The position numbers were made by a program, and so were the translations under genes. Shown piece after piece: positions 11,624 to 54,234 of a DNA stretch of 64,000 nt. The notes beneath the pieces were generated by a model, which ran no database searches, was not told the origin of the DNA, and saw nothing but the letters and a program-made list of their open reading frames with translations. Origin of the DNA: Promethearchaeota archaeon (GTDB lineage Archaea > Asgardarchaeota > Lokiarchaeia > Sigyniarchaeales > SOKP01); assembly GCA_019057795.1 (NCBI GenBank), contig JAHLWS010000043.1:13746-77745 (forward strand). The letters run 5' to 3'. How positions within the stretch are numbered: position 1 is the stretch's first letter; every line of letters starts with the position of its first letter.

Positions 11624-12101
11624 CTAGAACAAGCCCTACCTTCCCTAAATCTTTTAATAATTCTTGATCCTTAACTATTTTAGTGAATTCTGAAGCAAAT
11701 TTATTCATTTTTTCTTGTAAATCAAGCACATTAGAATATTTTGAATGCGTTATCATAACAGAATAAGTACCCTTATCCTTTAACTTATGATGGAGATCCT
11801 CACTAAAAAAAATCATGACAGGTTTCTTTTTTGTTTTAAAGATAGATTGATTGTCTAAAAGAACCTCATTAATCAAATCCAAGTAATTTTCATTTATCAA
11901 AACAATTATAATAACATGGGAGTTAATGATTGTAGATATCAAATAATCCCTATTGATTGAAGTATAGGGGTTTTTACCAATAGCTATAGCTCTAAAACCC
12001 TGATTGAAAAAAGCATTTTCAATCATTTCAACCATTTTTACATCAGATTTTCCGATACTACATAATATTAAAGCATTGTAAGTTACACTCATAATTATCA
12101 A
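11568..12101 (-). CDS. TIR/DUF4062-like alpha-beta protein with C-terminal TM anchor
   Basis: 177 aa; IINSHVIIIVL...KKPVMIF pattern; C-terminal GLVLGGIGVGLGLLFLLF. Confidence 0.5.
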   Translation of the reverse strand: MIIMSVTYNALILCSIGKSDVKMVEMIENAFFNQGFRAIAIGKNPYTSINRDYLISTIINSHVIIIVLINENYLDLINEVLLDNQSIFKTKKKPVMIFFSEDLHHKLKDKGTYSVMITHSKYSNVLDLQEKMNKFASEFTKIVKDQELLKDLGKVGLVLGGIGVGLGLLFLLFKGDD

Positions 12102-12605
12102 GATATTTTTTTATTTTAGATTTGAATCTTTTTTGAAAATACATTTTTATAATTAAAAATATGTGTATAATTTGAATTAATCCAATGATTTTTTATTCTA
12201 CTTTAATCAATAATAAATACAGCAAAAATATATGTTTTTACTTATTTCACAAAAATCTTCTCTAATCATTAAACTACCATATTTTGGACAATAAGAGGAG
12301 GTGGATTAGTTAATTTCGTTCTTACATTAAAAAATCTTAGCATTATGTTAATTTCTATTTCATAATCTTATTGGGGACACATTTCAATCGTAGATATAAC
12401 AATTAAAATACCTATTATATTATGACATTAATGAATTATTAAAATTGTATCTCTAATAAAAGGTGATTAACACTCGATAATTTTCCAACATTATCTTTAG
12501 AAGTTCGGTTAGGAATTATTTTAAATTCATTGTTTTCTGAATAAATACTATTATATAATTTCCTTTATTGTTATATTTTAGCTTAAATTAAATTAAGTAA
12601 AATTT

Positions 12606-25303: not shown

Positions 25304-26116
25304 TTGCTATTTAAAACAAGGAGTGTTTCAATGCCAAAATTGTATAAATTAAAATTAATTTTAGGAGGGGCTCAAAATTCAGGCAAGAGTTCGTTCATAA
25401 ATTGGCATCAAAAAGAAGATACTCCGATTGGTGTTTCATTTGAGTCTGTAAATTGTTACGCCAACGATGGCGATTTATATAAATTTCTTGTCTGGAATTT
25501 AAAAGATCGAGAAAGATTCAGATTTCTTTTCCCAGTTTTTTGTCGAGGTGCGTGTGCGGGATTAATATGTTTTGATTTATCTGATAAAAAATCTTTTTTA
25601 GATTTAAATAGGTGGATCACCCTTTTTCGAGAGAGTGCGGGAGATATTCCCATAATTTTAATTGGAACCAAAGCAGACTTAGAAAAAAGAGAAGTTTCAA
25701 ATGAAGAAATTAATGATCTGATTGCGAGAGAAAGTCTTGAGTGCGCTTTTTTTACATCTATTTCTAATAATTACGAAAATAAAGAAGAAATTTTCAGAGA
25801 AATAGTTCAAAAAATAGATTTAAATTCTCCTCTTAATAATTTTTATATTCCCGAAGAGTTCGATGATAAGAGTTTTAAATTGATAGAAAAATTGTTTGAA
25901 CGATGTCCTATTTGTAAGAAGTTAAATCATAGTAGCACAGGTTTGAAAAACGTCTATTATAACAAACATAACCCCGATACAATGAGATTAAGAGAGAACT
26001 TACTAAGGCTAATTGATAATTTAGAATATATTAATATTGAACATTCTAATAAAATTTCGATTGGAATTCCTTGTTGTGCCTGTTTTAAAAATTTTTTTGA
26101 AGAACAAGAGGCATAA
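25304..26116 (+). CDS. Rab-like small GTPase with C-terminal CxxC...CxxC domain
   Basis: GAQNSGKS, ERFR, IGTKADL; C-terminal CPIC and CCAC. Confidence 0.8.
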   Translation: MLFKTRSVSMPKLYKLKLILGGAQNSGKSSFINWHQKEDTPIGVSFESVNCYANDGDLYKFLVWNLKDRERFRFLFPVFCRGACAGLICFDLSDKKSFLDLNRWITLFRESAGDIPIILIGTKADLEKREVSNEEINDLIARESLECAFFTSISNNYENKEEIFREIVQKIDLNSPLNNFYIPEEFDDKSFKLIEKLFERCPICKKLNHSSTGLKNVYYNKHNPDTMRLRENLLRLIDNLEYINIEHSNKISIGIPCCACFKNFFEEQEA

Positions 26117-26120
26117 TTCT

Positions 26121-26540
26121 CTACTTTTTTAAAATTCCAGATGATTTTATTATGTCTAAGTGATCAAACGCTATTTTTAAGGACGCCAATTTTGATATCG
26201 GAACAATTTCTAAAGCTTGAGCATCGTCTTTTGCCAAGGGTATTTCAGTTTTGGATAAAGGTTCACATAAAAAAGCTATTGAAACCGTGTGGCCTCTCGG
26301 ATCGCGCTTAGGATCTGAAAAAACACCTATAAGTTTAATTAATTTTACATTAATGTTTGTTTCTTCATAAGCTTCTCTAATGCACGCATTTTCTATAGTC
26401 TCGCCTATGTCAACAAACCCTCCTGGCAAAGCTAATTCACCTTTAAAAGGTGGATTTTTTCTACGAATTAGAACAATAGAATTTTGCTGAAATAATATAA
26501 CAGCGTCAACTGTTAGTAATGGAGTTAAGGGTTTTGGCAT
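26121..26540 (-). CDS. Nudix hydrolase (ADP-ribose pyrophosphatase-like)
   Basis: GGFVDIGETIENACIREAYEETN Nudix box; RDPRGH. Confidence 0.92.
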   Translation of the reverse strand: MPKPLTPLLTVDAVILFQQNSIVLIRRKNPPFKGELALPGGFVDIGETIENACIREAYEETNINVKLIKLIGVFSDPKRDPRGHTVSIAFLCEPLSKTEIPLAKDDAQALEIVPISKLASLKIAFDHLDIIKSSGILKK

Positions 26541-38921: not shown

Positions 38922-39332
38922 GTGTATCTAATGGGTTTTGAGGAAGATAATAACGAGGAATTTGATGAAGAATTTGACGAAGATCTAGATGAAAACCTTG
39001 AGGAAGAATTAGATGAGCCTTCTACAAAGTCCCCCACGGAAGATTTTACAGTTAAAACTCCAGATGATAAAATCTCACATGAAGGAAAAAAGATTTCAGT
39101 GTATTTTCTATCAACCATAGGACCTGGTGAGAAAAAACAAAAATTACTTGTCTATACTGGAAATTTAGTAAGAGATATAAAAGAGACTGTAGCAAATTTG
39201 TTTGCTTTAGATCCTGCTGACTTTCATCTCTCATCCGGGGGAGTTACCATGGATGAGGGTAATCAATTAAGTGATTATAATTTGTCTGATGGAGACGATA
39301 TATTACTAATTCCAGCTAGCGTTGCTGGTTGA
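38922..39332 (+). CDS. Ubiquitin-like modifier 1 (acidic N-tail, C-terminus ...ASVAG)
   Basis: Beta-grasp pattern VYFLSTIGPGEKKQKL...IKETVA...LSSGG.TMD...LSDYNLSDGDDILLIP. Confidence 0.88.
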   Translation: MYLMGFEEDNNEEFDEEFDEDLDENLEEELDEPSTKSPTEDFTVKTPDDKISHEGKKISVYFLSTIGPGEKKQKLLVYTGNLVRDIKETVANLFALDPADFHLSSGGVTMDEGNQLSDYNLSDGDDILLIPASVAG

Positions 39333-39347
39333 ATAAGTTGGAAGGAT
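39186..39347 (+). repeat. Direct repeat copy 1 (3' half of ubiquitin 1 and flank); copy 2 at 46606-46767
   Basis: 128/147 coding nt identical by hand alignment; offset 7420 bp. Confidence 0.9.
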
Positions 39348-39559
39348 CCAAAAGTTAATATTATTTTCTCCTTCTCTTTTCTCTTGAAGGAATCAAATCG
39401 GTGAGAGTTATTATGGTTTTTAGCATAGCAATTGTATGTTTTTTATTTGAATTAAAAAGTAAAAATCTTTGTTTTAATTTAGAAATCGGTCAGCATCAAA
39501 ACATTTAAATACTTGACGAATCTTGTTCTTCTTAGCTCGTTTACTAGAAGAATACTTTC

Positions 39560-40396
39560 ATGATTGAATTTAAAGTTAACGATTACGTCTCGCTTCGATT
39601 GGAAGATGAGAAGACCGTTATTTATGTAGCTGGCAAAAGGTTTAGGCAGTGTATAAATTTATTGCTATATATCCCCGTTGATGAAATACGCGAATTTGAC
39701 CAAATAGAGTCTATTGACGAAGCCGCGGAAAGACTCGATAAATCGACGGAAGACGAGGTTTCACCAATAATAATTCCGGCTAAAGTTGAATTCTGGGGGC
39801 ACTGCAGCAATTTACAGGTTTGGTTCGAAAAAAACTACGATACAAGAATTCTTCGTTCCAACATAGCTTTTCCGTTATTAAGAAAATTAAGCGAATCGGG
39901 CGATATGGTTGCTCTAAGAGTATTCAAAGAAGAAATCGCAAAGAGATTTTCTCAAGGGCACGATACCGTTTGCAATTTTCTAATTGAAGAAGGATACATG
40001 GACTTACTTAACAGAGAAGAGGTTCTTAGCTTAAATATCGAACAAATAGAAGTTATACACGAATTAGAAGACTTGTTAGGAACAAGAATTAAGTTTAAGA
40101 CGGGAAAACATTTATTCGAACAAGGGTTCGTGCTTGATAAAGGAATTATCAAAGGGTTAGTGTTAGACAGCTGCGATCTTGAAGAACTTCCCAAACCAGT
40201 AAGAAAACTAAAATCGTTAGAAGTACTTAAACTGCACGGTAATCGTTTAGAAACGCTTCCAGAATGGATCGGCGAACTTCGGAAATTAAAGTCTTTATAT
40301 GTGCAAAACAATCGGTTGATTAGACTTCCAAACTCGCTCGGGAAGTTGAGTTCTCTTGAAAGTATAAAACTTTTTTTTTTTTTTTTATTGGCATGA
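39560..40396 (+). CDS. Loki-type LRR protein, apparently truncated at a T16 run
   Basis: EFWGHCSNLQVW...AFPLLRKL...FKEEIAKRF domain followed by LxxLxLxxNxLxxLP repeats that break off into FFFFLLA. Confidence 0.75.
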   Translation: MIEFKVNDYVSLRLEDEKTVIYVAGKRFRQCINLLLYIPVDEIREFDQIESIDEAAERLDKSTEDEVSPIIIPAKVEFWGHCSNLQVWFEKNYDTRILRSNIAFPLLRKLSESGDMVALRVFKEEIAKRFSQGHDTVCNFLIEEGYMDLLNREEVLSLNIEQIEVIHELEDLLGTRIKFKTGKHLFEQGFVLDKGIIKGLVLDSCDLEELPKPVRKLKSLEVLKLHGNRLETLPEWIGELRKLKSLYVQNNRLIRLPNSLGKLSSLESIKLFFFFLLA

Positions 40397-40513
40397 ATAA
40401 TAAACCTGAAATTAATTTTACAACGCCTTCTCAAGGTAATATATCAATTTATAAACAACTACATTATTTTTGAGATGAGGTTTATGATAATCCTACAGAT
40501 TTATAGAGAAAAT

Positions 40514-41242
40514 TTAAGGAAATTGAAGGGTATTTAAAAACGATTTTGGAACTGTTCTGGCAATAGTTACTAGTTTAAATTTTATGAAATTAGATTTTGA
40601 AAGTAGTTCGATAATTCGACCTAAAGTATAACCTTGATGGAAGACATCATCAAATATTAACAAAGAACTGCCTTTTTCTATTTGCTCTAATAAGTCTACT
40701 GATTCCTCAAGTAAAAAGTACTTGTTATTCACATAATCTTTTCTATCTTTGTAAAAAGTTGTACTTGTTTTTTTTTCGAATAACTGATTATAAGGGATCC
40801 AAGTTAGGTTTATATTCTGAGATATTTCAGAAAATAAATTTATCATTTGTAAATTAGTTGTGGGAACCATTGTTGCATAAATTATATCCTCAATTTGCCA
40901 GTCCGAATTTGAAATTTTTTCGTTAAGAATTAGCTTTAGAATTTCATGGGAGTGTTTAAAGGGTTGCAAGCTGATTTTCCTTAATATATCTCCAAACCAA
41001 TTTAAAGGATTTCCCTCATAATCTGTCTCATAAAAATGACCAGTTATGAAAGAAATTTTGCTTTCAAGTGACTCTATACCTGAATGACATTCTTTTGGTT
41101 TATCTGAAACATTAGGGTAAAAACAAACTGGACATATTGATTTGTATTTATTTTTTAGAGCAAACTCTTCATTTGTGTCAGTATTTTTAATTATGATATC
41201 CCATGGGTCAAATCCTTTTAAATAACGAAAAGGCATATTCAT
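40514..41242 (-). CDS. Phosphoribosyltransferase-fold (ComF-like) protein
   Basis: LLIFDDVFHQGYTL PRPP-loop variant; terminal VTIART; N-terminal CPVC. Confidence 0.75.
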   Translation of the reverse strand: MNMPFRYLKGFDPWDIIIKNTDTNEEFALKNKYKSICPVCFYPNVSDKPKECHSGIESLESKISFITGHFYETDYEGNPLNWFGDILRKISLQPFKHSHEILKLILNEKISNSDWQIEDIIYATMVPTTNLQMINLFSEISQNINLTWIPYNQLFEKKTSTTFYKDRKDYVNNKYFLLEESVDLLEQIEKGSSLLIFDDVFHQGYTLGRIIELLSKSNFIKFKLVTIARTVPKSFLNTLQFP

Positions 41243-41961
41243 TATAAGATAGCTTGTGATAATAATTGTAGAAATTTAAGAATTATATTAGGTTTATGTT
41301 TTCCATATATTAAAATCGAACCGTTTTTATCAATTCTAATTGTAATCCATTTATTTTCTTGATATAACCCCTTAATTTTAATAGTTATCGCTTTTACTTG
41401 TTCTGATTGTTTAATAAGTTCAGTAATAATACCAAGTTCGTTAACATCATTTGCATGTATATTTAATTCGTTTATTTTATCCGCTTCTATATAAGTCCTT
41501 TTAAGAATGAGTCTATGGATTTTTAAGGTAAGACCACTATTTTTTATTGATAGTAATTTTTTCCAAACTTGCCATAACTGTTTTTCGTTAAAGATAATTG
41601 ATTTAGAATCAGCTATATCACGTAAATAGACCTGTAATAAATGTTCAATCTTTTTCTCGGCTTTTCCAACTAGCAATAATTGATTATATTTTAAAATCAA
41701 TTTTTCATGATTAATCCACAGAGTCTGTTTATCTTGGAACTTTTTATACTCTTCTACTTTCATTTTAATCACAGATTTTTGCTGTATTGGTTCGAAAGAA
41801 AGATTCCTATAAGATTTTTTAGCACTTTCTACAAATAACTTTAGGGTTTGAGGATCATCTTTATTCACTTTTACCTTACTCAAGACATCTTCATCTTCAA
41901 GATTATTTAGAGCATATTTTTCATTAATTTCTAATAATTGAAATGATGGTATTTTAATCAC
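41242..41961 (-). CDS. Hypothetical protein
   Basis: 239 aa; 1-nt stop/start overlap with the PRTase gene. Confidence 0.7.
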   Translation of the reverse strand: MIKIPSFQLLEINEKYALNNLEDEDVLSKVKVNKDDPQTLKLFVESAKKSYRNLSFEPIQQKSVIKMKVEEYKKFQDKQTLWINHEKLILKYNQLLLVGKAEKKIEHLLQVYLRDIADSKSIIFNEKQLWQVWKKLLSIKNSGLTLKIHRLILKRTYIEADKINELNIHANDVNELGIITELIKQSEQVKAITIKIKGLYQENKWITIRIDKNGSILIYGKHKPNIILKFLQLLSQAIL

Positions 41962-41973
41962 ACTCTTAAATTT

Positions 41974-43656
41974 TTATATTATTATATTATTTATATCAGT
42001 TAAAAATGCATTATCTAACCTAATACGAGCAACCGGATTTGTTGTATATGGGGGATAACCTTGACCTCCATGATTGTATTGAAAATTGAAAATTGTATTG
42101 CGAACATTTTGAATTGAACGGTCTGGATGGTTCATTGCATCTTGGTTTCCTATAATAATTAATTTTTTCTTTGCTCTGGATAAGCCCACATACATCAGAT
42201 TGAATTGTGTAAAAAAATCAGATTTAGTTCGTGGTCGAGCAAAGGTTAATGAATATATAACTGCTTCTGCTTCTTGTCCTTGATATTGGTGTACTGTCCC
42301 AGTTCTGACATTATGATTCATAAAAATCTCAACTTGAGGTCTATAAGGGGCCGTTAATATTATATCCTCATTTGATAATACTTGATAAGCATGTCTCAAT
42401 GCATAATAAACCCCGAGCGCAATCTCAGCTTCACGCTCATTTATCCTTGATCTCCCGACTGTTCGATCTAATGCTTGAGGAATATCAGAAGTATCTAAAA
42501 TCACAAGAGGATGGTCAGGCTTCAATATTTCATCTAAAACATTCAATGTTTGTTGATTAAGATTCGGAATATTATTTAAATCATAATTAGTTCTTGGTAG
42601 TACGTAATCATTTGAGGTTGTTGGAGCATCAGGAATGACGGTTCGAGGTATGGGGAGAATTCTTTCAGTTATCTGTGCTATTGCGGGATGCATTCGATAT
42701 TGTCGATGTAATTCAATTCTTCTATCTATTGGAATAGGAATATTTTGATAAGTATTCATTCCCTGTAAATATGATAGCGCGCTGACACCTAATGGAGCTA
42801 ATGTAGATACAGGAGGTAATTGCTTATCATCACCGATCATACAGATGGATTGAATTGTATGCGTGGGTATAACTTGGTAAAATTGAGGAACAGTCAATTG
42901 ACTAGCTTCATCGTATATAACACCTCGTACTCTGACATTCGATCTGGGATCATTTGTTAATATTGAAAGTGAGTCAGTAGTACCAACAAAAATTAGGACC
43001 TCTCCCAATATTGCATTCCAATCTCTTTGTTGTATAAAGGTGTTACTTGGCATTCTATTATTAATAATAAAGTCATCAGGATTTAAATTTAGTCTTTGGT
43101 GTAAAACCTGAAAAGAATAAGAATCTTGAGCATACTGGGATTGTACTAATTTTATCCTCTCAAAATAATCTGGTGTATTTGCAAGTGATGCTATTTCATG
43201 GAATTTTTCATAAATTCTGTACGCTCCAGCATTCGAAAAAGTAGCAATGAAGACTCGTTCTGGTTGACCCCTATCTCTCCTAGCTCTTAAGAGATTTCCT
43301 GGTGTAAATACTCGAAGTGCACTTCCGGAACATATAACATGTGTCTTTCCCGTACCAGGTGGGCCTATTACTAATGTTGAAGCAACCACCTTTCGACTAA
43401 TATGAAAATTATTTCCAGGATCAGTAAATGTATGGATTTGTTCTGGAGGAACGTTACTTATACGGGCGGGTAATTGAGTTGATCTTTTATTTTGTGGAAC
43501 ATTTTCAATGGGATCTCTTATAGCTCGTACTGCTCTTCTCTGTTCAGAATTGAACGGAATAGTAGGTCTTATAAACTGGACTAGCCCTGTTTGAGCATTA
43601 AGACTCTGCTCTAAAAAGTTATACAAAACCTCTTCCCAATTATTTATTTGAGCCAT
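41974..43656 (-). CDS. SF1 helicase, DNA2/NAM7(Upf1)-like
   Basis: GPPGTGKT, ATFSNAG, YDEASQ, GDDKQLPP, QYRMHP, TVHQYQGQE, YVGLSRAK. Confidence 0.92.
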   Translation of the reverse strand: MAQINNWEEVLYNFLEQSLNAQTGLVQFIRPTIPFNSEQRRAVRAIRDPIENVPQNKRSTQLPARISNVPPEQIHTFTDPGNNFHISRKVVASTLVIGPPGTGKTHVICSGSALRVFTPGNLLRARRDRGQPERVFIATFSNAGAYRIYEKFHEIASLANTPDYFERIKLVQSQYAQDSYSFQVLHQRLNLNPDDFIINNRMPSNTFIQQRDWNAILGEVLIFVGTTDSLSILTNDPRSNVRVRGVIYDEASQLTVPQFYQVIPTHTIQSICMIGDDKQLPPVSTLAPLGVSALSYLQGMNTYQNIPIPIDRRIELHRQYRMHPAIAQITERILPIPRTVIPDAPTTSNDYVLPRTNYDLNNIPNLNQQTLNVLDEILKPDHPLVILDTSDIPQALDRTVGRSRINEREAEIALGVYYALRHAYQVLSNEDIILTAPYRPQVEIFMNHNVRTGTVHQYQGQEAEAVIYSLTFARPRTKSDFFTQFNLMYVGLSRAKKKLIIIGNQDAMNHPDRSIQNVRNTIFNFQYNHGGQGYPPYTTNPVARIRLDNAFLTDINNIII

Positions 43657-43676
43657 AATTTTTCTGACCTAATATA

Positions 43677-45425
43677 TTATACATATCTTGCAAATCTACC
43701 AAATGTGGCAACTCCAACTCTTTTATATCGCTCATCTAATCTACGTTCTAGGATATCGTCTGGGCTTAATGGATTTCCAGACCGCTCAGAAAATTGGATC
43801 GCTCTAATTAATTGCTTCTTTTGTCTCTTTATGTTAAAAATATCTTCGGTAATTGATAGTTTTCCGATGATACAATTAATATTATTCCCTCCGCCTACAC
43901 TTGCCAAGTTATAAGGATTGTTTTGAATCCATGGGTTCATAGGAACTATAGGATTTATAATATAATCATTATTAACTAACCTTCTCTCGAATGATATCTT
44001 ACAGTCACTTTCATAACATAAAGGGGACATCAAACAGACATCATATTTTCTATCTGAAACTTCAGGTAAAGTCCAGTGATTTGGCATTGAAGGGTGAAAT
44101 ATCCATTGCTGTGTATTATCTTGATATATCTCTCCAATCCAAAAACTTGAGAATTGATTTAGATCAAATAGTTGTAATGGAAAAAGTCTTGTAATTTTAA
44201 ACAGTGTTTCGTGTTTAAATACAGCTTCATCTCTTAGATACCTTAAGAATTTGTAAACATTTGATTCCACTCGGTCTCTGGGAAATTGTTGATTGCTAAT
44301 TCGTCTATCTTTCATCCCACACCCTTGTGTCCCACCTATTGGACAAAAGTAATCTCCTGGTATGTTTTGACCAATTTGGAAAGGACAAGGATTGAAACCT
44401 TGAAATGAATTCACTATCCCTGGATAATTTGAATATAAAAAATTTAAAATGATTGCAGCTTGTCCAGTTTCATTTTTAAAATTCTGTGTGGGATTCATTC
44501 TAATTGAATGATCAATAGTGTCTACGATAATATCAAACTCTCTAAAATTAAAATTATTAAGATCATAATATGAACTGAAAATAACATTATCCATTGCATC
44601 ATAGAGTTCGAGAGGAAGTTTTTGATTCTCCACTAATTGTGCTAAACTTTCTCTCAATATCCACATTTTATGAAATTCTTTAATGATAAAAAATAATCTA
44701 ATTCCCTCTGGTGTGTTTATATTATCTCTTAGATCTATGGGAGGATCGAAAAAATTATCTGCAATTGGAACTGGTACACGAATCTCACGATTTTTCAAGT
44801 GAATTATGGGAATAATTCCCTTGATAGCTATAAGTCCCCTCCAGTAAAAACTATTTGCGGGTCGTTGCGAGCCAATTCCGATATTTGCTCGTCTTAATTG
44901 GGTGAGTGTAACCCTTGTATTGTCTGACCTGTAGATATTAAAATCTTCATTTAATACATTCAAATTGAATAAGACATCACGTGACGAATGATATCTATCT
45001 AAAATATTCTCATTATTTAAGCGTTCTAAATACTGGCTAATATAATTCATAGTTCTTATATCAGAGTCTTCAGGATCTGAGTTTCCTCTAATGGAATCGA
45101 GAAGTTGTCCTGGGTCTCTGATATTCCTCATTATCGAGTCGGGATAGGTGCTTCGTGCTAATGCCCGCATCAAAACTACCGCAAACTCCCGAAATCTAGA
45201 CTCAAAATTGAAATATTGCGGAAATTCTTCGTTTGGGTCATTTGGGTTTACCAATAATCCACCCCACCTCGGAAAACTACCTCTTATCAATTCAAGAAAT
45301 CGCCATCGATAACAAGGATTGCAAAATTCATCAACATCCGCAAAAGGGAAATATTTAAGATTAAAAGGTGTCCAAACTCCATCTAATATCGTTCTCTTTG
45401 ATGCTCTCTTGAAACTTCTACTCAA
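43677..45425 (-). CDS. Hypothetical protein, possible Dna2/Cas4-like Fe-S nuclease
   Basis: 582 aa; N-terminal DVDEFCNPC and a later three-Cys group (PCPF...FCP...GCG); directly upstream of the helicase. Confidence 0.6.
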   Translation of the reverse strand: MSRSFKRASKRTILDGVWTPFNLKYFPFADVDEFCNPCYRWRFLELIRGSFPRWGGLLVNPNDPNEEFPQYFNFESRFREFAVVLMRALARSTYPDSIMRNIRDPGQLLDSIRGNSDPEDSDIRTMNYISQYLERLNNENILDRYHSSRDVLFNLNVLNEDFNIYRSDNTRVTLTQLRRANIGIGSQRPANSFYWRGLIAIKGIIPIIHLKNREIRVPVPIADNFFDPPIDLRDNINTPEGIRLFFIIKEFHKMWILRESLAQLVENQKLPLELYDAMDNVIFSSYYDLNNFNFREFDIIVDTIDHSIRMNPTQNFKNETGQAAIILNFLYSNYPGIVNSFQGFNPCPFQIGQNIPGDYFCPIGGTQGCGMKDRRISNQQFPRDRVESNVYKFLRYLRDEAVFKHETLFKITRLFPLQLFDLNQFSSFWIGEIYQDNTQQWIFHPSMPNHWTLPEVSDRKYDVCLMSPLCYESDCKISFERRLVNNDYIINPIVPMNPWIQNNPYNLASVGGGNNINCIIGKLSITEDIFNIKRQKKQLIRAIQFSERSGNPLSPDDILERRLDERYKRVGVATFGRFARYV

Positions 45426-46270
45426 TCTAAATCACCCCATGGTATTATTTTAATATTCAAATCTACCATCCTTACATATACTAATTCGTTTATAATGTCT
45501 GCAATTTCATCTAATTCCTCATCCATAGTTTTATCACACTTATTGTCTGACTTTAGTTTCAGATATTGTGCTAAAATAACTCTTTTAAATATTGGTAAAT
45601 CGTCATACTTGTAAATTATTTTTTCTTTTCTTATTTCAAGTAAAGATATAATCCACTTGAATAATAAATGTAGAGAAAGGACAATATCAATCTCTTCATC
45701 ACTCAATTTGGAAAAAAAAGACTTAAAATCTTCTTCATACATATCCAATTGATATCTAGCATAATTAATTAGTGTTGCATCATCGGTATCGTCATTCTCT
45801 TCATCAAATAGATTATCATAAAGCAATTTTTCTAAACTTGAAGGAATGCAGATATCATTTGATGCAATAAAAGATATAAACCCATGGTATTTCCGATCTT
45901 TTCTCCATTTTTCCATTAATGTCTTATCTGTGGATATGAGTTCATATAAATGTTTACAAATGGTATTAGGGCTAAAGGGAATGATTCTAAATACTTTTTT
46001 TGATGTTTTGCTGATATTTTCAGTCTCATTTGGTTTATCTTTTTTTTCAGATAGAATTTTTATACAGACGGGAAAATCCTCATCGGGGTATGTTTCTTTC
46101 AAGTTCATTAAAATAGCCCATAATTTAGATGCTAAGAGCTCTTGTTTTATTTTTGAATAATTAATATTGAGATTGAAATGAGGACAATTGCTATTAAATG
46201 ACCCTATAAGTTTTTCAAGTTCTTTTTTAGGTGTATTTAAAAGAACTTTCCTTAATTCCATTTTGTCCAT
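45422..46270 (-). CDS. Hypothetical protein
   Basis: 282 aa; 4-nt overlap with the next gene. Confidence 0.7.
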   Translation of the reverse strand: MDKMELRKVLLNTPKKELEKLIGSFNSNCPHFNLNINYSKIKQELLASKLWAILMNLKETYPDEDFPVCIKILSEKKDKPNETENISKTSKKVFRIIPFSPNTICKHLYELISTDKTLMEKWRKDRKYHGFISFIASNDICIPSSLEKLLYDNLFDEENDDTDDATLINYARYQLDMYEEDFKSFFSKLSDEEIDIVLSLHLLFKWIISLLEIRKEKIIYKYDDLPIFKRVILAQYLKLKSDNKCDKTMDEELDEIADIINELVYVRMVDLNIKIIPWGDLD

Positions 46271-46605
46271 ATTTCCCTAGAAGAGATAGAATACTTTTAT
46301 ATAAAAACATTATTAATACATATTTAATATTTTAAAAAAATCAGAGATGAGACTGATTTTCTAATTTTATTTATAAACGTAAGAAGAAATAAGAAACTTA
46401 TTCTACTTTATTTTTATTTTTTATTTTATTGTATTATAGCATCGTTTTTGCTCGTTTTTAGATTATAAAAGATTTTTTATAAAAGTATCTACTAGTAAAT
46501 TAAAATTTTTTCCAAAGCATTTTATGTACTATTGCTTTTGATTTTCACACATCTCTTGCATTTTCTTCTCTCTAAAAAACTCTAAGGATTAAAAATGGAG
46601 ATTTT

Positions 46606-46752
46606 ACTGTAGCAAATTTGTTTGCTTTAGATCCTGCAGATTTTCATTTATCTTCGGGGGGAGTCACTATGGATGAAACTTCGATGTTAAGTGATTATAA
46701 TTTGTCTGATGGAGATGATATCTTACTAATTCCAGCTAGCGTTGCTGGTTGA
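46606..46752 (+). pseudogene. Ubiquitin 3'-half fragment (repeat copy 2)
   Basis: TVANLFALDPADFHLSSGGVTMDETSMLSDYNLSDGDDILLIPASVAG*; lacks the first two beta-strands; in-frame TAA at 46573-46575. Confidence 0.85.
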
Positions 46753-46876
46753 ATAGGTTGGAAAGATATAGACAATTTAATAATATTATTATCTTTTTTC
46801 ACTTCTATTTTTTTTTTTTCTTGATGGAATTAGCGCACTAGTAATTACGCGTCTTAATTTAAAATAGAAATGTATT

Positions 46877-47257
46877 CTAATTGAGTTTTTTAAGAGCTTC
46901 AATCTCCTTCATATAGGATTTCTCAAGAATCTCGTAACATTCAAGACAGTACCACACTTTGTCTCTCAGGCTGAAAATATGATCTCCTTCGATATCTCGG
47001 CAAGTTGCGCAAACGACTATTGAAGCAGAAAAGTTCTTTCGAAGATTGCTTGCTTGATCGATAACTGGCCTAACTGCAAGCAAATAATTGTCATAACTTA
47101 AAACAAGAGCTGCCCTTTTGGCTTGTAGCCTTGCTCGCTCCTCGTGAAATTCATTTAATCTTTTTTGGTAATCTTTTAAAAGAACGCGCCGAAATTCTAA
47201 GCGTATCTTCCGCAACTTTGGATTTTTTAATTTTATTAGTCTTTCTCTTTCTCTCAA
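46877..47257 (-). CDS. Hypothetical protein with CxxC...CxxC
   Basis: CATC...WYCLEC. Confidence 0.6.
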   Translation of the reverse strand: MRERERLIKLKNPKLRKIRLEFRRVLLKDYQKRLNEFHEERARLQAKRAALVLSYDNYLLAVRPVIDQASNLRKNFSASIVVCATCRDIEGDHIFSLRDKVWYCLECYEILEKSYMKEIEALKKLN

Positions 47258-47350
47258 ACCGGGCGCCTGCTTTTTATTGCTTATTTAACAAAACATGTTA
47301 CACAAAAAACAATAATAATATTTAAACTAATAGTCTCTGGAATTTATAGC

Positions 47351-47833
47351 TTAAATGTATCTGATTATCTTTACGAAACTTCTGGGCAACACTCCAGGTA
47401 ACATCGAATCAAAGACCTTGAAGTCTTCCGTGCTTCCTAATACGCCTATCACTTTTGATAGCTGAATCTTTTTTACCAAGTTAAGCTGTTTGGTAAAAAC
47501 CGAGTTGAAATCTGTATTTAAAAACCCTGAATATCCATTGTCTTGAATTTCTACCCCCCGATCGTTCCATACTTTAAGAGAGGCCTCTAAATCGTTATCA
47601 TTTAATTCTAATATTTTCTCATAGACTCCTCGCCATTCGGCACCAAAATTATGTTTCAGAGCGGTGATTAAATCTTGCTCGGTTATTTGTCTAATCTTAC
47701 CACTCGCGTCTCGCAATCTATCTAGCTCCACTATAGTTCCTAAAAGTGCTTCTATGTAAGCTTCGGCTACACGAGGGCCCAATTCCTTAAAAAGAGGTTC
47801 AAAATCTTTCTTATGATAGCTTTTCGAGGTCAT
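47351..47833 (-). CDS. Hypothetical protein (start probably ATG 47833)
   Basis: Protein-like composition from MTSKSYHKK; the upstream part of the track ORF is antisense to another ORF. Confidence 0.5.
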   Translation of the reverse strand: MTSKSYHKKDFEPLFKELGPRVAEAYIEALLGTIVELDRLRDASGKIRQITEQDLITALKHNFGAEWRGVYEKILELNDNDLEASLKVWNDRGVEIQDNGYSGFLNTDFNSVFTKQLNLVKKIQLSKVIGVLGSTEDFKVFDSMLPGVLPRSFVKIIRYI

Positions 47834-47848
47834 AGCAAAATCGCCAAA

Positions 47849-47998
47849 GTGGAGATTTACAACGGTAAAAAAGAAAAAATAAGAGAAAACGAATCTTGTT
47901 TCTATTGTGGAAGCACAAATACAGAAACTTTCAAACATTGCAACGGTTTGATGTTTGAGATTCATTGCAACAGTTGTGGAGAAAATTCCATTTATTAA
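47849..47998 (+). CDS. Small zinc-ribbon protein
   Basis: CFYCGS...HCNSCG. Confidence 0.4.
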   Translation: MEIYNGKKEKIRENESCFYCGSTNTETFKHCNGLMFEIHCNSCGENSIY

Positions 47999-48192
47999 AC
48001 ACGGAGATAATTTACTATCGTAATGCTTCAAGAATTCTGGTATTAGTTTTGCTTTATATACTTGTTTGCGTTCTTAATTCCTACCAAAATCAAAAAATTT
48101 ACATGATGGAAAATGATAGAATTCAATTTAATTCATTATTGAATTGCTTAACTAAGTATTATTAATACCTACAAGTACTGCGAGCTAATAAT

Positions 48193-48978
48193 TTACTTTC
48201 TCGATGGAATCAGGGCTATTTCGTCGTCATCGTCAATAGGAAAGCCCCTTATCGGCTTAGATTCGTCTAATAAAATCCCCCCAGATGACAATAGAAAATC
48301 TTCTAGATTATAATCAAATAATATTCCAACTTTTTCTTTAATGACACTTACTAATTCAGACGTATCAATAATGAGAATCTTAGTTTTCTCACCTGATTCG
48401 ACTAATGACCTTACATAAACACGTATTTTCTCATCCATTCCAATGGTATGCAATGGTGGGTTGTATATCACCTGTTCCTCAGTTAGGCTCTTGGTTTCTA
48501 ACATATCTTCAATTAACTGTTTTCTCTCGTAAGCGTTAAAATACAACATTTCCCTAATAAAAAATATTTTATCCATTTTTGATAATCCTAAGAGATTAAT
48601 TTTAGCTATTTGCTCTTTACTAAAAATAGTAAAAATATAATCATCCATCGATTCTATTTCTTCAAACGATTCCAACGCATTCGCATATTTATCTACTAAA
48701 GGCATTGCATCAAAGTAATCCTCAAGTAGAGCACTACTTTTTTTCTTAAGTGGTTTTTGTTTAGGAAAAGATTTAATGCCTTTCATCTTCACAATAGGGA
48801 TACTTTTAGATTGAAAAACCGTGTAGATAGTGCCTGTGGATAGCACAGCAACACTCCCAATTGTTAAAAAGAGATATACTGGAACATTTTCTACTTGTAA
48901 AAATATAAGAATCAAATAGATAAATGCAATCCCTACATAAAGAGTAATGAGACTTAATATTCTATAATTCTTTCTCAT
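48193..48978 (-). CDS. Membrane-anchored protein with C-terminal non-conjugatable ubiquitin-like domain
   Basis: Two N-terminal TM helices; C-terminal VYVRSLVESGEKTKIL...IKEKVG...FLLSSGGILLDE...DDDEIALIPSRK aligns with the local ubiquitins but has no terminal Gly. Confidence 0.8.
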   Translation of the reverse strand: MRKNYRILSLITLYVGIAFIYLILIFLQVENVPVYLFLTIGSVAVLSTGTIYTVFQSKSIPIVKMKGIKSFPKQKPLKKKSSALLEDYFDAMPLVDKYANALESFEEIESMDDYIFTIFSKEQIAKINLLGLSKMDKIFFIREMLYFNAYERKQLIEDMLETKSLTEEQVIYNPPLHTIGMDEKIRVYVRSLVESGEKTKILIIDTSELVSVIKEKVGILFDYNLEDFLLSSGGILLDESKPIRGFPIDDDDEIALIPSRK

Positions 48979-50006: not shown

Positions 50007-50339
50007 ATGAGTTTTGACAACGATTTTGATGAGGAATTAGAACCAGTTAAATCTAAAACCCCATCAAGTAAAACACCCTCAACAGGCAGAAAGTTGACTT
50101 TATATTTCATGTCAACTATTGGTCCTGGTGAAAAGAAGGAAAAATTAACTGTGAATGACGCTAATAATGTAAGTGACATTAAACGAACATTAGGAAATTT
50201 ATATGGACTTGATCCTGAAGAATTTCACCTCTCATCCGGAGGAGTTACCATGGATGAGGGTAATCAATTAAAGGATTATAATGTTAGTGATGGCGACGAC
50301 ATTCTCTTGATCCCAGCGAGTACTGCTGGATACTTTTAA
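50007..50339 (+). CDS. Ubiquitin-like modifier precursor (…ASTAG-YF)
   Basis: Paralog of 38922-39332; first gene of the Ub-E1-E2-JAMM-RING operon. Confidence 0.9.
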   Translation: MSFDNDFDEELEPVKSKTPSSKTPSTGRKLTLYFMSTIGPGEKKEKLTVNDANNVSDIKRTLGNLYGLDPEEFHLSSGGVTMDEGNQLKDYNVSDGDDILLIPASTAGYF

Positions 50340-50420
50340 ATACTTCTTTTCATAAAGTTTAATATAAGGGCAATAAGCCCTTCAATTTTTTTATTTTTTC
50401 AATTAATAATAATAATAATA

Positions 50421-51653
50421 GTGATAATATTGGATAAGGAATCAGATTTTTTTGCAAAGGGAATGACAGCAGAAGAGAGAGATTTATATGATCGCCAATT
50501 TCGTTTGGAAGGATGGTCTCAGAATTTGGTAAAAAACTCAAGAGTGTTAATTGTAGGCATTGGTGGGTTAGGTTGCGAAATTGCTAAAAACCTAGCCATG
50601 TTAGGTGTAGGCCATTTAGATCTTGTTGATTTAGACATTATTGAGCATTCCAATTTGAATCGCCAAATTCTTTTTGTTGATGCAAAGTTAGGAGAGCCAA
50701 AAGCTATTGTTGCGGCTAATAAGCTAATCAAGATTAACCCTAATATTACTGTAAAAGGATATCATACCTCCTTAGAAAGGTTAGATCCTGCTTTATATCG
50801 TGCGGCAGATGTTGTTATTGGGGGTCTTGATTCAATGAATGCCCGATTAAACCTAAATGCGCAATGTATACGATTTAGAAAACCACTAGTGGATGCAGGT
50901 GTATCTGGTTATCATGCACATATGTATTCAATCTTTCCGTATCGGAATGCTTGTTATGAATGTAATCCACTGCCAATAGGGGAAAGTGATGAAATGGCAG
51001 CCTGTACAGTAGTAGGGATCCCCCGAAAACGGATTCATTGTGTTTTTAAAGGAGACATGGCTTTTAAAGAAAAATTTGATAGAGATCCGAACCCAAAAAA
51101 TATAAAGGAAATTGAATTTATCCAAAAAGTTGCAAATGAATTAGTGAATAAGCATAATTTCCTACCTGAATATACTTCTGATGATATCGTTAAAATAATT
51201 GATCGTCATGATCCTGGGATCATTACTATTAATGCTGTTATTTCTGCTTTAGAATCACATGAAGCTGTGAAAATCTTGCATTGGAAAAGAGGTCATAAAG
51301 GTTTAGGAATGCCCATTTCAAGTTATGTTATATTTAATGGAATGACAATGAAACTGTATCATATTGAAAAGAAGAGAAATCCGGAATGTTCTCAATGTGG
51401 TAAAAATGTAAGACGTGTTGCTATAAAAATGAAAGCTCAATCACCCTGTATGAACATAATTAGAACGTTGCAAAAGAATGGATTTGAATTGGAACCTGAA
51501 TTTGAACCAGTTGTTACCTTACAGGATTTCAATGACATCGTGGTTTTAGATTTAGAGCAAAATGTAATCGAAAATGGATTAAGAAACTACGAATTTCTGA
51601 CCGTTGTGGGGTTTAAGGGTGGAGAAATTTATGTTACTTTAAAATTAAAATAA
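50421..51653 (+). CDS. Ubiquitin-activating enzyme E1
   Basis: YDRQ, GIGGLG, SNLNRQ, CYEC, catalytic ACTVVGIPR...HC, CSQC. Confidence 0.93.
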   Translation: MIILDKESDFFAKGMTAEERDLYDRQFRLEGWSQNLVKNSRVLIVGIGGLGCEIAKNLAMLGVGHLDLVDLDIIEHSNLNRQILFVDAKLGEPKAIVAANKLIKINPNITVKGYHTSLERLDPALYRAADVVIGGLDSMNARLNLNAQCIRFRKPLVDAGVSGYHAHMYSIFPYRNACYECNPLPIGESDEMAACTVVGIPRKRIHCVFKGDMAFKEKFDRDPNPKNIKEIEFIQKVANELVNKHNFLPEYTSDDIVKIIDRHDPGIITINAVISALESHEAVKILHWKRGHKGLGMPISSYVIFNGMTMKLYHIEKKRNPECSQCGKNVRRVAIKMKAQSPCMNIIRTLQKNGFELEPEFEPVVTLQDFNDIVVLDLEQNVIENGLRNYEFLTVVGFKGGEIYVTLKLK

Positions 51654-51690
51654 AAATTAAGTCAAAAATGATTTTTGAGAAAAATCTATT

Positions 51691-51726
51691 AAAAAAAAAG
51701 TATAAAAAAAAAGTATAAAAAAAAAG
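51691..51726 (+). repeat. Short tandem repeat of A9GTAT units between E1 and E2
   Basis: aaaaaaaaagtat aaaaaaaaagtat aaaaaaaaag. Confidence 0.6.
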
Positions 51727-51747
51727 AAAATAAAAAGGGTTGAGAAA

Positions 51748-52275
51748 ATGAGTATAAGAACTAGTCGAGTTTCCCGAGATTTTGCGGGGCTAAAAAAGTT
51801 GTTAAAGCAAGGTACCATTATCCAATTAAAACCATTTAATCCGAAAAAGAAGAGTATTGATCATTTAGCAATCACAATTAAAGGTCCTAAAGGTACAGTT
51901 TATGCAGGTGGATTGTTTAAGTTGGAAATGAAATTCCCTGCTCAGTATCCTAAGCGCCCTCCTTTCGTAAGATTGCATACTCCAATTTGGCATCCAAATT
52001 TTTGGCCAAAACCAAGTGAATACAAAGGACAGAGAAATATTTGTTTAGCTTTAGTAGATCCTTCTTTAACTGGTAAAAAAGGGGGATGGAGTCCTTCAAA
52101 AACAGCAGTTACTGTTGTTCAAGCAATAATTGCCATGTTAAACACCCGTGGTAAATATGTTAATCCCACTGATGTTTTTAATAAGAAAGCTGCAATAGAA
52201 ATGATGAAAAATCAGAAATTTTTTGAGAAAAAGGTCAAAAATTTAGTAAAGAAATACGCAAAAGATAAATGGTGA
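51748..52275 (+). CDS. Ubiquitin-conjugating enzyme E2
   Basis: GPKGTVYAGGLF, FPAQYPKRPP, IWHPN, catalytic ICL, WSPS. Confidence 0.95.
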   Translation: MSIRTSRVSRDFAGLKKLLKQGTIIQLKPFNPKKKSIDHLAITIKGPKGTVYAGGLFKLEMKFPAQYPKRPPFVRLHTPIWHPNFWPKPSEYKGQRNICLALVDPSLTGKKGGWSPSKTAVTVVQAIIAMLNTRGKYVNPTDVFNKKAAIEMMKNQKFFEKKVKNLVKKYAKDKW

Positions 52276-52282
52276 ATTTATA

Positions 52283-53080
52283 ATGAATATTGATGATAAT
52301 GCACTCAGAGAGGCAATAAAACAGAAAATTAAGGAAAAAATTAAAAAGGAATTACTTGAAGAAGTATATACCGAATTACAACTAGAAGAATTGCAGGAAG
52401 AATTAACCACTGAACTTATTAAAGCAAGGCCTTTAGAACATTCAAAAGAAATTAAAGCCAAACTTGAGCCAATTCCTATGGAACCAATAAAAACTGTAGC
52501 TAGCAATGACAGAATTGAAGCTAAAATAGCTATCACTACAAAAGCCATTCTTAAGATAGCTAGCCATTCTTTAAAATATGCACATTCTAAAATACGAAGA
52601 GAGAATTGGGTTGAAGTAATAGGGTTGCTTGCAGGATTATACGATAATAGAAAAGGAATTCTCCATGTTGAAGATGCGTATCCGATGGGGCATGGTACAG
52701 CAGTATATGCTGAAATTAAAGATTATAAAAATTATGTTAGAGCCTACAAAGATATTAAAAAAGATAATCTGTTTATTTGTGGATGGTATCATTCTCATCC
52801 TTCTTATGGATGTTTTATGTCACGAGAAGACTTAGGAACTCAAGTAAGATATCAAAAATTATGGGATAAAGCTATTGCGCTTGTTATTGATCCATATCAG
52901 ATTAACGGGAAATCTTTAGGTTTTGAAATTTATCGTGCTAATTTTAAAACAAAAAAATGGTTTTCAATTCCGTTTGATATTAAGGGGCATTTAGATGTGA
53001 GAATGTTACCAGAAATTTTAGAATTTATAAATCCTATTATTGAAGGAAAACCAGTTTATTTAGAATATGATGAAGAATAA
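52283..53080 (+). CDS. JAB1/MPN (JAMM) isopeptidase
   Basis: EVIGLL, GWYHSHPSYGCFMSRED, LVIDP. Confidence 0.93.
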   Translation: MNIDDNALREAIKQKIKEKIKKELLEEVYTELQLEELQEELTTELIKARPLEHSKEIKAKLEPIPMEPIKTVASNDRIEAKIAITTKAILKIASHSLKYAHSKIRRENWVEVIGLLAGLYDNRKGILHVEDAYPMGHGTAVYAEIKDYKNYVRAYKDIKKDNLFICGWYHSHPSYGCFMSREDLGTQVRYQKLWDKAIALVIDPYQINGKSLGFEIYRANFKTKKWFSIPFDIKGHLDVRMLPEILEFINPIIEGKPVYLEYDEE

Positions 53081-53109
53081 TGAATAGTTTTTAAGGTGAA
53101 AATTAAACT

Positions 53110-54234
53110 ATGGTAAAAAAAAAAGTGTTAAGGATAATAGCTATTATTTTTCTAATAATTGGCTTAATTCATAGTTTAATCTCATATTCTTTAACTATTT
53201 TTTTTACGTGGTTATTGGTCGGATTTTGGATAATATTGATAATAAAGATTTTTGAAAATATCAAGCGCCACCGTGAGTTTAATTCACCACATAATACTGC
53301 ATTTTTTGTGATTCTCCCATTATTTATCGGGATTTTTTACTCCATATGGGGTTCTTTTACTGGACTATTGGGAGAGAGTCTTATCGGTGGCGTATATTTT
53401 AGTTTTTGGAGTCTAATTTTTGCTTTTCCATTTGTAATGTATGGTTTATATTCTTTATATCTTTGTTTTAAGAAATATAATGTAATCTATTTTGGAAGAA
53501 AATCAGTAAAAGCAAGGATATTGGGATATATTCTATCATTCTCAGTTCTTATTCTTATAATTGCCTATTGGATAACTTTATATAATTTAATTGAATTTTC
53601 TCCATTAGACTTAAATCTCCTATTACTTTTCATAGCTATAGTTTTAATATTAATTGTTTTTGGATTTACTAGTACTGGTCCATCAATACCAACGTTAACT
53701 CGGAATTACATTGCTGAACGTACTAGAAGGATCAATAATTTGACCACACCTTCAACCCAGAGACAAAGAGTACGCACAACACGTACAACTAATACATCTC
53801 CATCAATTAGAACAACTACACGTACAACAAGATCTAGAACCCAATCGTCAAGAATAACTCCTACATCACACAGACAAACGGCAAGGACTAGAACAACAAA
53901 TACTACACGTACTACTCGTGTTAAACCAACTTCAAAAGTTCGTGATCTAAATAAATATAAACCAAGAGCATCATATCTTACAGTAGATGACTTCAAATGT
54001 ATCTTTTGTTTTAATTTACCAAAGCTTCCTGGAGATAGAGGTAGAGGAATAGTTATATGTCCAAATTGCAGATATCCCGCTCATGCTGATGAATTTAAAG
54101 ATTGGATGCGAACTTCAAACCTCTGCTCACGTTGTAGTGCTGTTATACCATCAGGTTTTAGGCATAATCCTAGAATTGTATCTGTAAAAAATTATTTAAT
54201 TATCTATAGACATTTTTTAAAGAAGAAAAGATAG
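53110..54234 (+). CDS. Multi-TM RING-type E3 ligase candidate
   Basis: About 6 TM helices, Thr/Arg/Ser-rich linker, CIFC...CPNC-x4-H...W...CSRC. Confidence 0.8.
   Translation: MVKKKVLRIIAIIFLIIGLIHSLISYSLTIFFTWLLVGFWIILIIKIFENIKRHREFNSPHNTAFFVILPLFIGIFYSIWGSFTGLLGESLIGGVYFSFWSLIFAFPFVMYGLYSLYLCFKKYNVIYFGRKSVKARILGYILSFSVLILIIAYWITLYNLIEFSPLDLNLLLLFIAIVLILIVFGFTSTGPSIPTLTRNYIAERTRRINNLTTPSTQRQRVRTTRTTNTSPSIRTTTRTTRSRTQSSRITPTSHRQTARTRTTNTTRTTRVKPTSKVRDLNKYKPRASYLTVDDFKCIFCFNLPKLPGDRGRGIVICPNCRYPAHADEFKDWMRTSNLCSRCSAVIPSGFRHNPRIVSVKNYLIIYRHFLKKKR

Follow-up and report, generated by a model that had tools for sequence, protein, structure and literature searches.

In Escherichia coli, a circular molecule that enters by conjugation and shares partial homology with its target may insert by a single crossover that doubles 109–950 bp of the target, whereas true homology-facilitated illegitimate recombination (HFIR) deletes; most of the supposed HFIR events in this bacterium proved to be such single-crossover duplications (PMC3240628). 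HFIR proper (de Vries and Wackernagel 2002; Prudhomme et al. 2002; Meier and Wackernagel 2003) combines, as outlined in a later article, one homologous anchor with one non-homologous joint (PMC5361080), and an anchoring of this type has been proposed for the orphaned 3' ends in arrays of type VI secretion (T6SS) and Rhs genes (PMC5361080). The present study concerns a locus in a window of 64,000 nucleotides from a Promethearchaeota archaeon of the Lokiarchaeia (contig JAHLWS010000043.1, assembly GCA_019057795.1; all positions given without a contig refer to this window), where the 3' half of a ubiquitin-like (Ubl) gene, here called Ubl1, is present twice—as copy A at the end of the intact gene and as copy B, an orphan, 7.4 kb downstream—with unrelated genes in between. 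We consider this repeat, with a rough probability of 0.5, to be the scar of a stepwise, homology-anchored acquisition of foreign DNA, in which the Ubl genes acted as anchors and the gap between two convergent genes as a permissive landing place.

Concerning the designations, G000 is the organism's own genome and C-numbers are its contigs or those of the genome named (the window belonging to C43), G001 and the following are relatives, X-numbers are metagenome runs and L-numbers are fetched loci.

Extent of the repeat and allele origin of its copies

Ubl1 (38922–39332, forward strand) is, according to its open reading frame (ORF) and translation, an intact gene of 136 amino acid residues (aa) ending with ...IPASVAG*. 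Its 3' half, copy A, agrees from 39186 to 39332 with copy B (46606–46752, forward strand) in 128 of 147 nt, the first 32 nt being a perfect match, whereas upstream of the repeat edge there is no similarity (8 of 30 nt shared). Copy B was recovered at E 1.2e-52 when the region was compared by BLAST with G000; it translates as the last 48 residues of Ubl1, without the 5' half and without an in-frame ATG, a stop being located 12 codons upstream. All of this had been described by an earlier reading made from the sequence only and was reproduced by alignment, BLAST and translation. The same reading had let the similarity end about 15 nt past the stop, which proved too short: with gaps, it takes in the 3' half of Ubl1, all of the intergenic spacer and the reverse-complement 3' tip of the convergent 261-aa gene (48193–48978, reverse strand; assigned by ORF and synteny), so that the extended repeat ends at ~39393–39425 for A and at 46837 for B and covers 208–232 nt. 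The 261-aa gene encodes a protein with two predicted transmembrane helices and a C-terminal Ubl-like domain, and in relatives its stop lies 50–70 nt from that of Ubl1. The composition gives no mark of an island, the GC content being 0.32 inside and 0.30–0.31 in the flanks of this AT-rich window (0.31).

To assign the alleles, both copies were aligned with Ubl1 of G032, the closest relative (95% identity in both flanks), and with Ubl3 (50007–50339, forward strand), a full-length third paralogue found by a BLAST match at 50103–50329. Copy A falls into three segments: 39186–39227, identical to G032 Ubl1 in 42/42 positions and to Ubl3 in 29/42; 39228–39270, identical to G032 Ubl1 in just 28/43 and to Ubl3 in 42/43 (the match applying to the Ubl3 of G000, G032 and G041); and 39271–39332, with 61/62 and 42/62, respectively. 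Copy B scores 40/42, 42/43 and 61/62 against G032 Ubl1 in the same three segments. The middle segment thus delimits, by its segment-wise identity, a gene-conversion patch of 43 nt (39228–39270, forward strand) copied from Ubl3 at ~50229–50271, 11 kb away. It holds 15 of the 19 differences between A and B, or 16 of 19 when position 39296, which also agrees with Ubl3, is counted. Outside the patch, the coding parts (39186–39335 for A, 46606–46752 for B) are 97–100% identical to the G032 allele, i.e. the duplicated segment is of resident type on both sides of the insert; judging from these alignments, both coding copies are the resident allele, and most A/B differences are due to conversion by Ubl3. 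In the expressed gene, the patch turns the loop ETSM/EISM of Ubl1 into EGNQ; two allele classes of the loop occur among species, ETS[YM]/EISM and E[DNG]NQ.

With regard to the adjoining DNA, copy B together with its downstream sequence (46606–46837) is 97% identical to G032 (C60:1561-1793), 94% to G040, 92% to G041 and 88% to G005, whereas the equivalent span of copy A is merely 82–85% identical to the same four genomes. The alignment identifies the stretch to the right of B (46753–46837; no strand assigned) as the native intergenic spacer followed by the native last seven codons of the 261-aa gene (46817–46837, reverse strand). The stretch to the right of A (39336–39425; likewise without strand) appears, in a three-way alignment with G032 and copy B, as a decayed foreign relic of the spacer and of at least 16 last codons of a 261-type gene; the identity drops to ~75–80%, with indels, directly after the copy A stop codon, and no closer match to it was found in the 41 congeners or in G000. 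Copy B, continuous with its native downstream flank, is the displaced original. The earlier view of an element that replaces the 3' end of its target gene and displaces the original therefore stands for the displacement (the native flank of copy B being 97% identical to the closest relative) and fails for the replacement, the coding sequence of copy A being resident outside the patch (42/42 and 61/62) and not element-borne.

Two other accounts of the copies were rejected. That A and B are alleles of different lineages maintained by purifying selection, an idea prompted by differences that were all either synonymous or clustered, disagrees with the position of most differences in the Ubl3-derived patch and with the resident type of the remainder. 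That the two 261-tip relics end at one common base, as at a site-specific core, is contradicted by the relic of A running through at least 16 decayed codons and that of B stopping after seven.

The shape of the repeat itself—an abrupt start inside a gene, a run through its 3' end and, on the gene-proximal side, 32 nt of perfect match—can be counted in favour of a different origin, namely site-specific integration of one or two elements. The attachment (att) sites would then lie in the Ubl1 3' half, with the core in the 32-nt stretch, and in the 261 tip, the recombinase would have acted in trans or been lost, and the repeats would be attL and attR of a tandem accretion. The displaced native end would suit this origin as well; the resident coding part of copy A, which is not element-borne, is at variance with it.

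Occupancy of the site in relatives

A 14.5-kb query was compared with 30 relatives and then with the whole genus (41 genomes). Approximately 30 of the 41 congeners have an empty site, as seen in 15 genomes by direct alignment (G001, G005, G007, G010–G018, G032, G040 and G041) and in 15 further ones from the distance of ~2.2 kb that separates the hits to Ubl1 and Ubl3. In two others the gap is occupied by different cargo of a housekeeping type, with no repeats around it: G002 has the alpha and beta genes of an E1 dehydrogenase (L015 4379–6398) and G008 a class I lysyl-tRNA synthetase (L016 3952–5610). The insert studied here is confined to G000 among the congeners examined, and the scan of the genus revealed no second Ubl1 copy in any of them. 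The locus had been proposed as a recombination or insertion hotspot, to be checked through empty sites or different cargo in related genomes; both were found, and the proposal is borne out. An independent marine-sediment run, X8, adds a contig of 1.9 kb, from a close relative, in which 39221 is joined to 46642 and 46837 to 48269—an empty site that skips 7420 and 1431 nt and has 51 other letters in place of 46838–48268. Since the skipping joint contains 18–66 other letters, the contig comes from a relative and is not an excision product of the G000 strain.

The emptiness of the site in relatives would be expected under site-specific integration, too, whereas the repeat-free cargo of G002 and G008 in the same gap argues against it. 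The distribution also bears on the question of whether the duplication preceded the cargo. Tandem duplication plus deletion, the alternative named in the earlier reading, is right in that ~150 nt of resident sequence are truly duplicated; the duplication is, however, tied to the foreign insertion and does not go back to a second complete gene, and no relative has a second Ubl1. In a fuller form of this explanation, the Ubl1 3' end, spacer and 261 tip would first have been duplicated in situ by replication slippage or unequal sister exchange, the gap being filled only later by unrelated insertions and conversions, so that the repeat would not be tied to the cargo. The resident type of both coding copies, near-identical outside the Ubl3 patch, the gene conversion demonstrably active at the locus and the multi-source patchwork of the interior (see below) would all agree with it, yet no relative shows the bare duplication, and the spacer and 261 relic of copy A, ~20–25% diverged beside an adjoining coding part that is ~99% identical, are unlike a recent local duplication. 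We consider a duplication-first origin improbable.

Two observations on variability close to the site may be added. The tail of the 261 protein varies with the occupants of the gap (…SRK, …SRKK, …SRKKDK). In G015 (C37; L017 405–3463), a 3-kb insert without a repeat follows directly after the AG codons of Ubl3 and changes its tail from YF* to QDKHRFF*; it contains a full-length copy of the leucine-rich repeat (LRR) gene described in the next section and a 181-aa ORF, so that the junction between Ubl3 and E1 is variable as well. No displaced Ubl3 fragment was found after this LRR insertion.

Modular composition of the insert

The DNA absent from relatives, about 8.8 kb of it, reaches from 39394 to 48196 by BLAST, or from 39336 to 48268 when the alleles are taken into account, i.e. 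beyond the 7.4 kb between the repeats that the earlier reading had delimited as the island. A truncated LRR gene and a five-gene helicase operon lie between the copies, as claimed there. The insert is a patchwork and no single element with two ends.

The LRR gene module (39477–40369; ORF 39560–40396; forward strand), recognised by LRR Pfam hits, is truncated at its 3' side. Copies with 81–85% nucleotide identity and the same left-boundary base, the full-length form of which has 343 aa, are present once in G015:C37, where the neighbours are Ubl3 and E1, and in two places in G004:C75.

The operon with its promoter region, designated the X unit (40481–46372, reverse strand; annotated with Pfam, PADLOC and a fold search), comprises genes for a 282-aa protein with no assigned function (45422–46270), a 582-aa Cys-rich protein with a weak Dna2/Cas4-like fold (43677–45425), a superfamily 1 Upf1-like helicase with AAA_11/AAA_12 domains (41974–43656), a 239-aa protein with no assigned function (41242–41961) and a phosphoribosyltransferase (PRTase)-like protein (40514–41242), all on the reverse strand. 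It is single-copy in G000; a scan of genome contigs detected no relative, and a metagenome scan yielded four loci. In the metagenome contig L026, the unit is 98.8% identical, the homology stopping at 40481, where unrelated genes follow; in a contig of X8, it is 98.2% identical over 40497–46372 and has unlike flanks, the depth of this operon contig being 12.6 versus ~50 for the empty-site relative of the same run. More distant homologues keep the five-gene order without Ubl fragments or flanking repeats; no direct repeats surround the homologues in L024, L025 and L027, and no terminal inverted repeats were found at the ends of the X unit. The unit has evidently been mobile in recent times and moves by itself between contexts. 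The sequence-only reading, which had treated the 7.4 kb as one island, had named beforehand the occurrence of the cargo without the repeat as counter-evidence, and this is what was observed: the operon occurs elsewhere at 98–99% identity, bounded at 40481/40497 and 46372, without the Ubl repeat. The repeat-bounded segment is accordingly no unit with constant ends, the operon copies having other ends and unrelated flanks.

To the right of the X unit, a cdhC fragment (46366–46510, forward strand) preserves the last five codons (KRKKK*) of acetyl-CoA synthase beta (CdhC/ACS beta) and ~130 nt of downstream flank. It is 97% identical to C11:17245-17301 of G000, 95–98% to G032, G040 and G041 and, over 130 nt, 85% to G005; its allele type is that of G041/G005 and not that of the C11 copy of G000 itself. 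Further short copies of the cdhC flank in G032:C16 and G041:C202 were discarded, since they look like low-complexity AT-rich spacer with ordinary genes between.

Beyond copy B, the insert continues with the Y cassette (46838–48192, reverse strand), a conserved two-gene module absent from relatives at this site and composed of y126 (46877–47257, reverse strand), coding for a coiled coil and a Zn-ribbon, and y226 (47351–48031, reverse strand). The closest copies of the y226–y126 pair belong to another genus (G092 and G131; 64%/54% aa identity), more distant ones being present in G007, and y126 has paralogues elsewhere in G000. The cassette is followed by the replaced 3' end of the 261-aa gene (48193–48268, reverse strand; ~25 codons), a foreign allele of the G012/G014 type that mismatches G032 heavily and whose tip agrees with G014 in 26 of 26 positions in an alignment read by eye; the identity to G032 returns to ~95% from 48269. 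The native tip of the gene adjoins copy B, so the Y cassette is situated between the native tip and the replaced end.

Genes similar to y126, with a coiled coil and a CxxC...CxxC motif, were also seen in tandem arrays of up to four copies, and in L024 one of them (6725–7039) comes immediately downstream of a five-gene operon that is a distant copy of the X unit. Besides the window and L024, these observations concern the loci L037, L038, L039 and L041.

Recombinases, read evidence and assembly

No integrase, transposase or resolvase was detected among the ORFs of the island by Pfam, PADLOC and PHROGs, in agreement with the earlier impression that no integrase is visible. A scan of the whole genome with PF00589 gave four tyrosine recombinases, located on C22, C56, C78 and C82 and none on C43. 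These four enzymes, together with the order of the three 261-tip alleles, which is that seen in tandem arrays, complete the case for site-specific integration. It would nevertheless have to accommodate 8.8 kb without a recombinase, an operon that moves with other boundaries and without Ubl sequence, and a patchwork insert with a truncated gene and a piece of cdhC flank among its parts; we regard such an origin as unlikely, albeit worth keeping in mind.

The metagenome evidence consists of Logan contigs assembled with k=31, which are broken at every repeat, and within these contigs no excision junction of the G000 strain was seen. A "go-back" joint from 46312 to 40820 in X3 was discarded, X3 being almost without depth on the operon and the sides of the joint being short. 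Parts uncovered in X3, X6 and X8 were not taken as absence. The whole stretch was found letter for letter in two samples, and the comparison of coverage inside and outside the island, which had been suggested as a check, gave an even depth of ~8–13 in both.

These data also bear on the possibility that the repeat is an assembly artefact joining two strains, or else a 7.4-kb circular element and a chromosome. G000 is a metagenome assembly of 4.95 Mb whose contamination amounts to 7.5%, in both holder runs the k=31 contigs break at every repeat, and a path swap at the repeat would yield a near-native Ubl1 and a 7.42-kb circle. Against this, the stretch is letter-identical in two samples at even depth, the bases that first tell A from B are only 33 nt away from the repeat edge, i.e. 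well within read length, and the Y cassette, like the replaced end of the 261-aa gene, is outside the repeat and absent from relatives, so that an insertion exists in any case. An artefact therefore seems very improbable.

Proposed course of the acquisition

The stepwise, homology-anchored reading is offered to account for the resident duplication of ~150 nt, the foreign DNA right after the copy A stop, the native flank of copy B, the replaced 261 end, the modular cargo and the lack of a recombinase. In a first step, a fragment with a diverged 261 end and the y226–y126 pair would have recombined homologously inside the 261-aa gene near 48269, its other end being attached by an illegitimate joint at 46837/46838, seven codons before the resident stop, with the replacement of 51 nt. 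In a second step, a mosaic molecule bearing a copy of the Ubl1 3' half, and already loaded with the foreign spacer and 261 relic, the truncated LRR gene, the mobile operon and the cdhC flank fragment, would have recombined with the resident counterpart of that half. The simplest form of this step would be a single crossover of a circular molecule (Campbell-type), since a crossover with a circle carrying the Ubl1 3' half would lead to a duplication of the observed kind; an exchange between sister chromosomes, homologous on one side and illegitimate on the other, could be an alternative. In the outcome, ~150 nt of resident sequence would be doubled, copy A staying fused to its gene and copy B being shifted with the native spacer 7.4 kb downstream. 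The third step, demonstrated by the segment-wise identities, is the conversion of the 43-nt patch of copy A from Ubl3. The DNA would have come from related lineages, with no dedicated integrase. On this reading, the Ubl gene would matter only as conserved homology beside a permissive gap.

Several points weigh against this course of events. Neither a donor genome nor a circular form nor an intermediate, such as a site with the Y cassette only, was found, which leaves both the sequence of the steps and the circular intermediate as inferences. The donor of the stretch right of copy A would need a Ubl1 3' half ~97–99% resident-like and a spacer of ~75–80% identity, and this unequal likeness implies that it was already mosaic or that A and B were homogenised later. 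As the k=31 contigs span no repeat, the linkage of A and B rests on the deposited assembly, and an integrase may have acted in trans. Finally, Campbell integration and HFIR are documented in bacteria, and we know of no such report for this archaeal lineage.

Ubiquitin-like genes at the locus

Ubl3 is the first gene of the operon Ubl3–E1–E2–JAMM–(RING-like membrane protein) located at 50007–54234 on the forward strand (ORFs and Pfam). Its score on PF00240, 26.1 bits, is above the cut-off of 25.4, whereas that of Ubl1, 18.9 bits, is below it, the two proteins sharing 60% aa identity. The operon neighbours were identified by Pfam as a ThiF-type E1 (6e-56), a UQ_con E2 (2.5e-26) and a JAB deubiquitinase (2e-14). 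A profile match combined with a neighbouring E1, E2 and deubiquitinase is thus present, by way of the score of Ubl3 and the likeness of Ubl1 to it, and places the genes in the ubiquitin family. Orthologues of Ubl1 are present in 35 of the 41 congeners. The C-terminus of the 261-aa protein, for which two membrane helices are predicted, has 35–40% aa identity to Ubl1 and Ubl3. Both free Ubl proteins terminate in Ala-Gly rather than Gly-Gly, Ubl1 exactly at AG* and Ubl3 with a two-residue tail (AGYF*), which would presumably need trimming by the JAB protease.

Candidate function of the operon

The C-terminal half of the helicase matches MkoA of the Mokosh system at 2e-31 in PADLOC, and the PRTase-like protein matches the C-terminus of PsyrT (PsyrTA) at 4e-5. 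A full Mokosh or PsyrTA gene set was not found by PADLOC, which gave partial domain-level hits alone and left the other three proteins unmatched. For the 582-aa protein, 24 homologues were found, all uncharacterised, in which Cys and acidic residues are invariant; its AlphaFold model has a pLDDT (predicted local distance difference test) of 62, and the top fold matches—Dna2, Cas4-family, AdnAB and RecB-type nucleases—are weak (E ~1e-3). Taken by its sequence features, the five-gene operon is a plausible candidate for an anti-phage defence system, one that apparently belongs to no named system.

A distant homologue is labelled Odinarchaeota, and the sources are marine sediment and cold seep; taken with the Ubl operon and the LRR genes, this would suggest a Lokiarchaeia-like Asgard archaeon. 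In L026, the near-identical operon copy is followed at 3937–8748 by a DUF3644-like gene of 353 aa, a TPR protein and a PHP/AAA ATPase. A gene of 351 aa, similar to the former by eye, is found in G000:C78:78500-93000 (L044) within an uncharacterised cluster resembling a defence island and bounded by a 153-nt direct repeat, 96% identical, with copies 10.9 kb apart.

A second island with the same architecture

Comparison of the genome with itself revealed a second island at G000:C11:44681-48606 (L042 1682–5607). The last ~130 nt of an SCP2-like gene (44681–45010) and 23 nt of its flank recur at 48453–48606, 3.6 kb downstream, with 88% identity and a 1-nt frameshift; a four-gene ATP-binding cassette (ABC) amino-acid transporter operon stands between the copies, the orphan is directly adjoined by native flanking DNA, and the corresponding site in G042:C85 is empty. 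The translated frames of the cargo, on which no family search was run, show no recombinase. An SCP2 fragment before an ABC operon in G005:C109 was rejected as a further case, the contig merely ending there. The island is situated at an unrelated gene with no motif shared with Ubl1, which speaks against site-specific integration, and it repeats the architecture with the cargo exactly between the copies, which speaks against duplication first.

The C11 case supports a general integrase-free process in this lineage, with the proviso that two cases are no census. A wider claim, that Lokiarchaeia-type Asgard archaea generally capture cargo the size of an operon where conserved genes have their 3' ends, independently of a recombinase, leaving an orphan target end of 130–230 nt and carrying scraps of gene ends, such as the cdhC tip, from earlier stops, would at present be doubtful; if it were true, orphan gene ends would form a readable trail of the past locations of the cargo.

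Other direct repeats, each pair within one contig, 100–350 nt long, 95–100% identical and 5–26 kb apart, may be candidates for repeat-bounded inserts and do not overlap with tRNAs found by ARAGORN. They are located in G000 at C4:5590-5690 and 29809-29909, C76:1-351 and 26019-26369, C79:21905-22233 and 39181-39509, and C86:7346-7474 and 12006-12134.

Comparison with known systems

The locus is an event of a known kind, a hotspot insertion by homologous or illegitimate recombination, and a fairly ordinary, clear example of it. It offers a well-resolved natural case of the gain of accessory, probably defence, genes in an uncultured Asgard-type archaeon, with the empty site, the displaced native end, the replaced gene end, the conversion patch and near-identical cargo in other contexts visible together. 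It marks the variable DNA beside an archaeal ubiquitin operon as a hotspot and cautions that a target-derived direct repeat need not be an att site. Should the C11 example generalise, gene flow without integrases could be mapped in these genomes by way of orphan gene ends.

Aloposons and the tRNA-targeting Heimdall elements (PMC8813620) were rejected as direct comparators on account of their giant genes, tRNA sites and integrases. More broadly, the locus shares with integrase-borne islands at the 3' ends of tRNA and protein genes—the Heimdallarchaeia tRNA-targeting elements (PMC8813620) being an example—the target-derived direct repeats, the empty site, the defence-type cargo and the displaced end; it differs in having no integrase and no travelling repeat-bounded unit, in its resident copy A and in an insert that extends beyond the repeats.

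The displacement of C-terminal ends in Rhs/T6SS arrays (Jackson et al. 2009; Kirchberger et al. 2017, PMC5361080) is similar with respect to a module anchored in the conserved part of a gene, the old 3' end orphaned downstream and the arrays arising by repeated events. The target here, by contrast, is a ubiquitin-like modifier and not a polymorphic toxin, the fused end has the allele of the orphan, leaving the protein end unexchanged, and the cargo is unrelated to the target. HFIR, as outlined above, resembles the Y-cassette side, with its crossover near 48269, its joint at 46837/8 and the 51 nt replaced; its classical form, however, deletes recipient DNA (PMC3240628) and so would not by itself yield a 150-nt repeat.

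With Campbell-type integration (PMC3240628), the locus has in common an insert flanked by a direct duplication of 100–950 bp of the target, two copies that are both resident or nearly so and no need for a site-specific recombinase. It departs from this scheme in that here a circle is only postulated, the host belongs to the archaea and copy A adjoins a diverged spacer, so that the donor itself would have been a mosaic.

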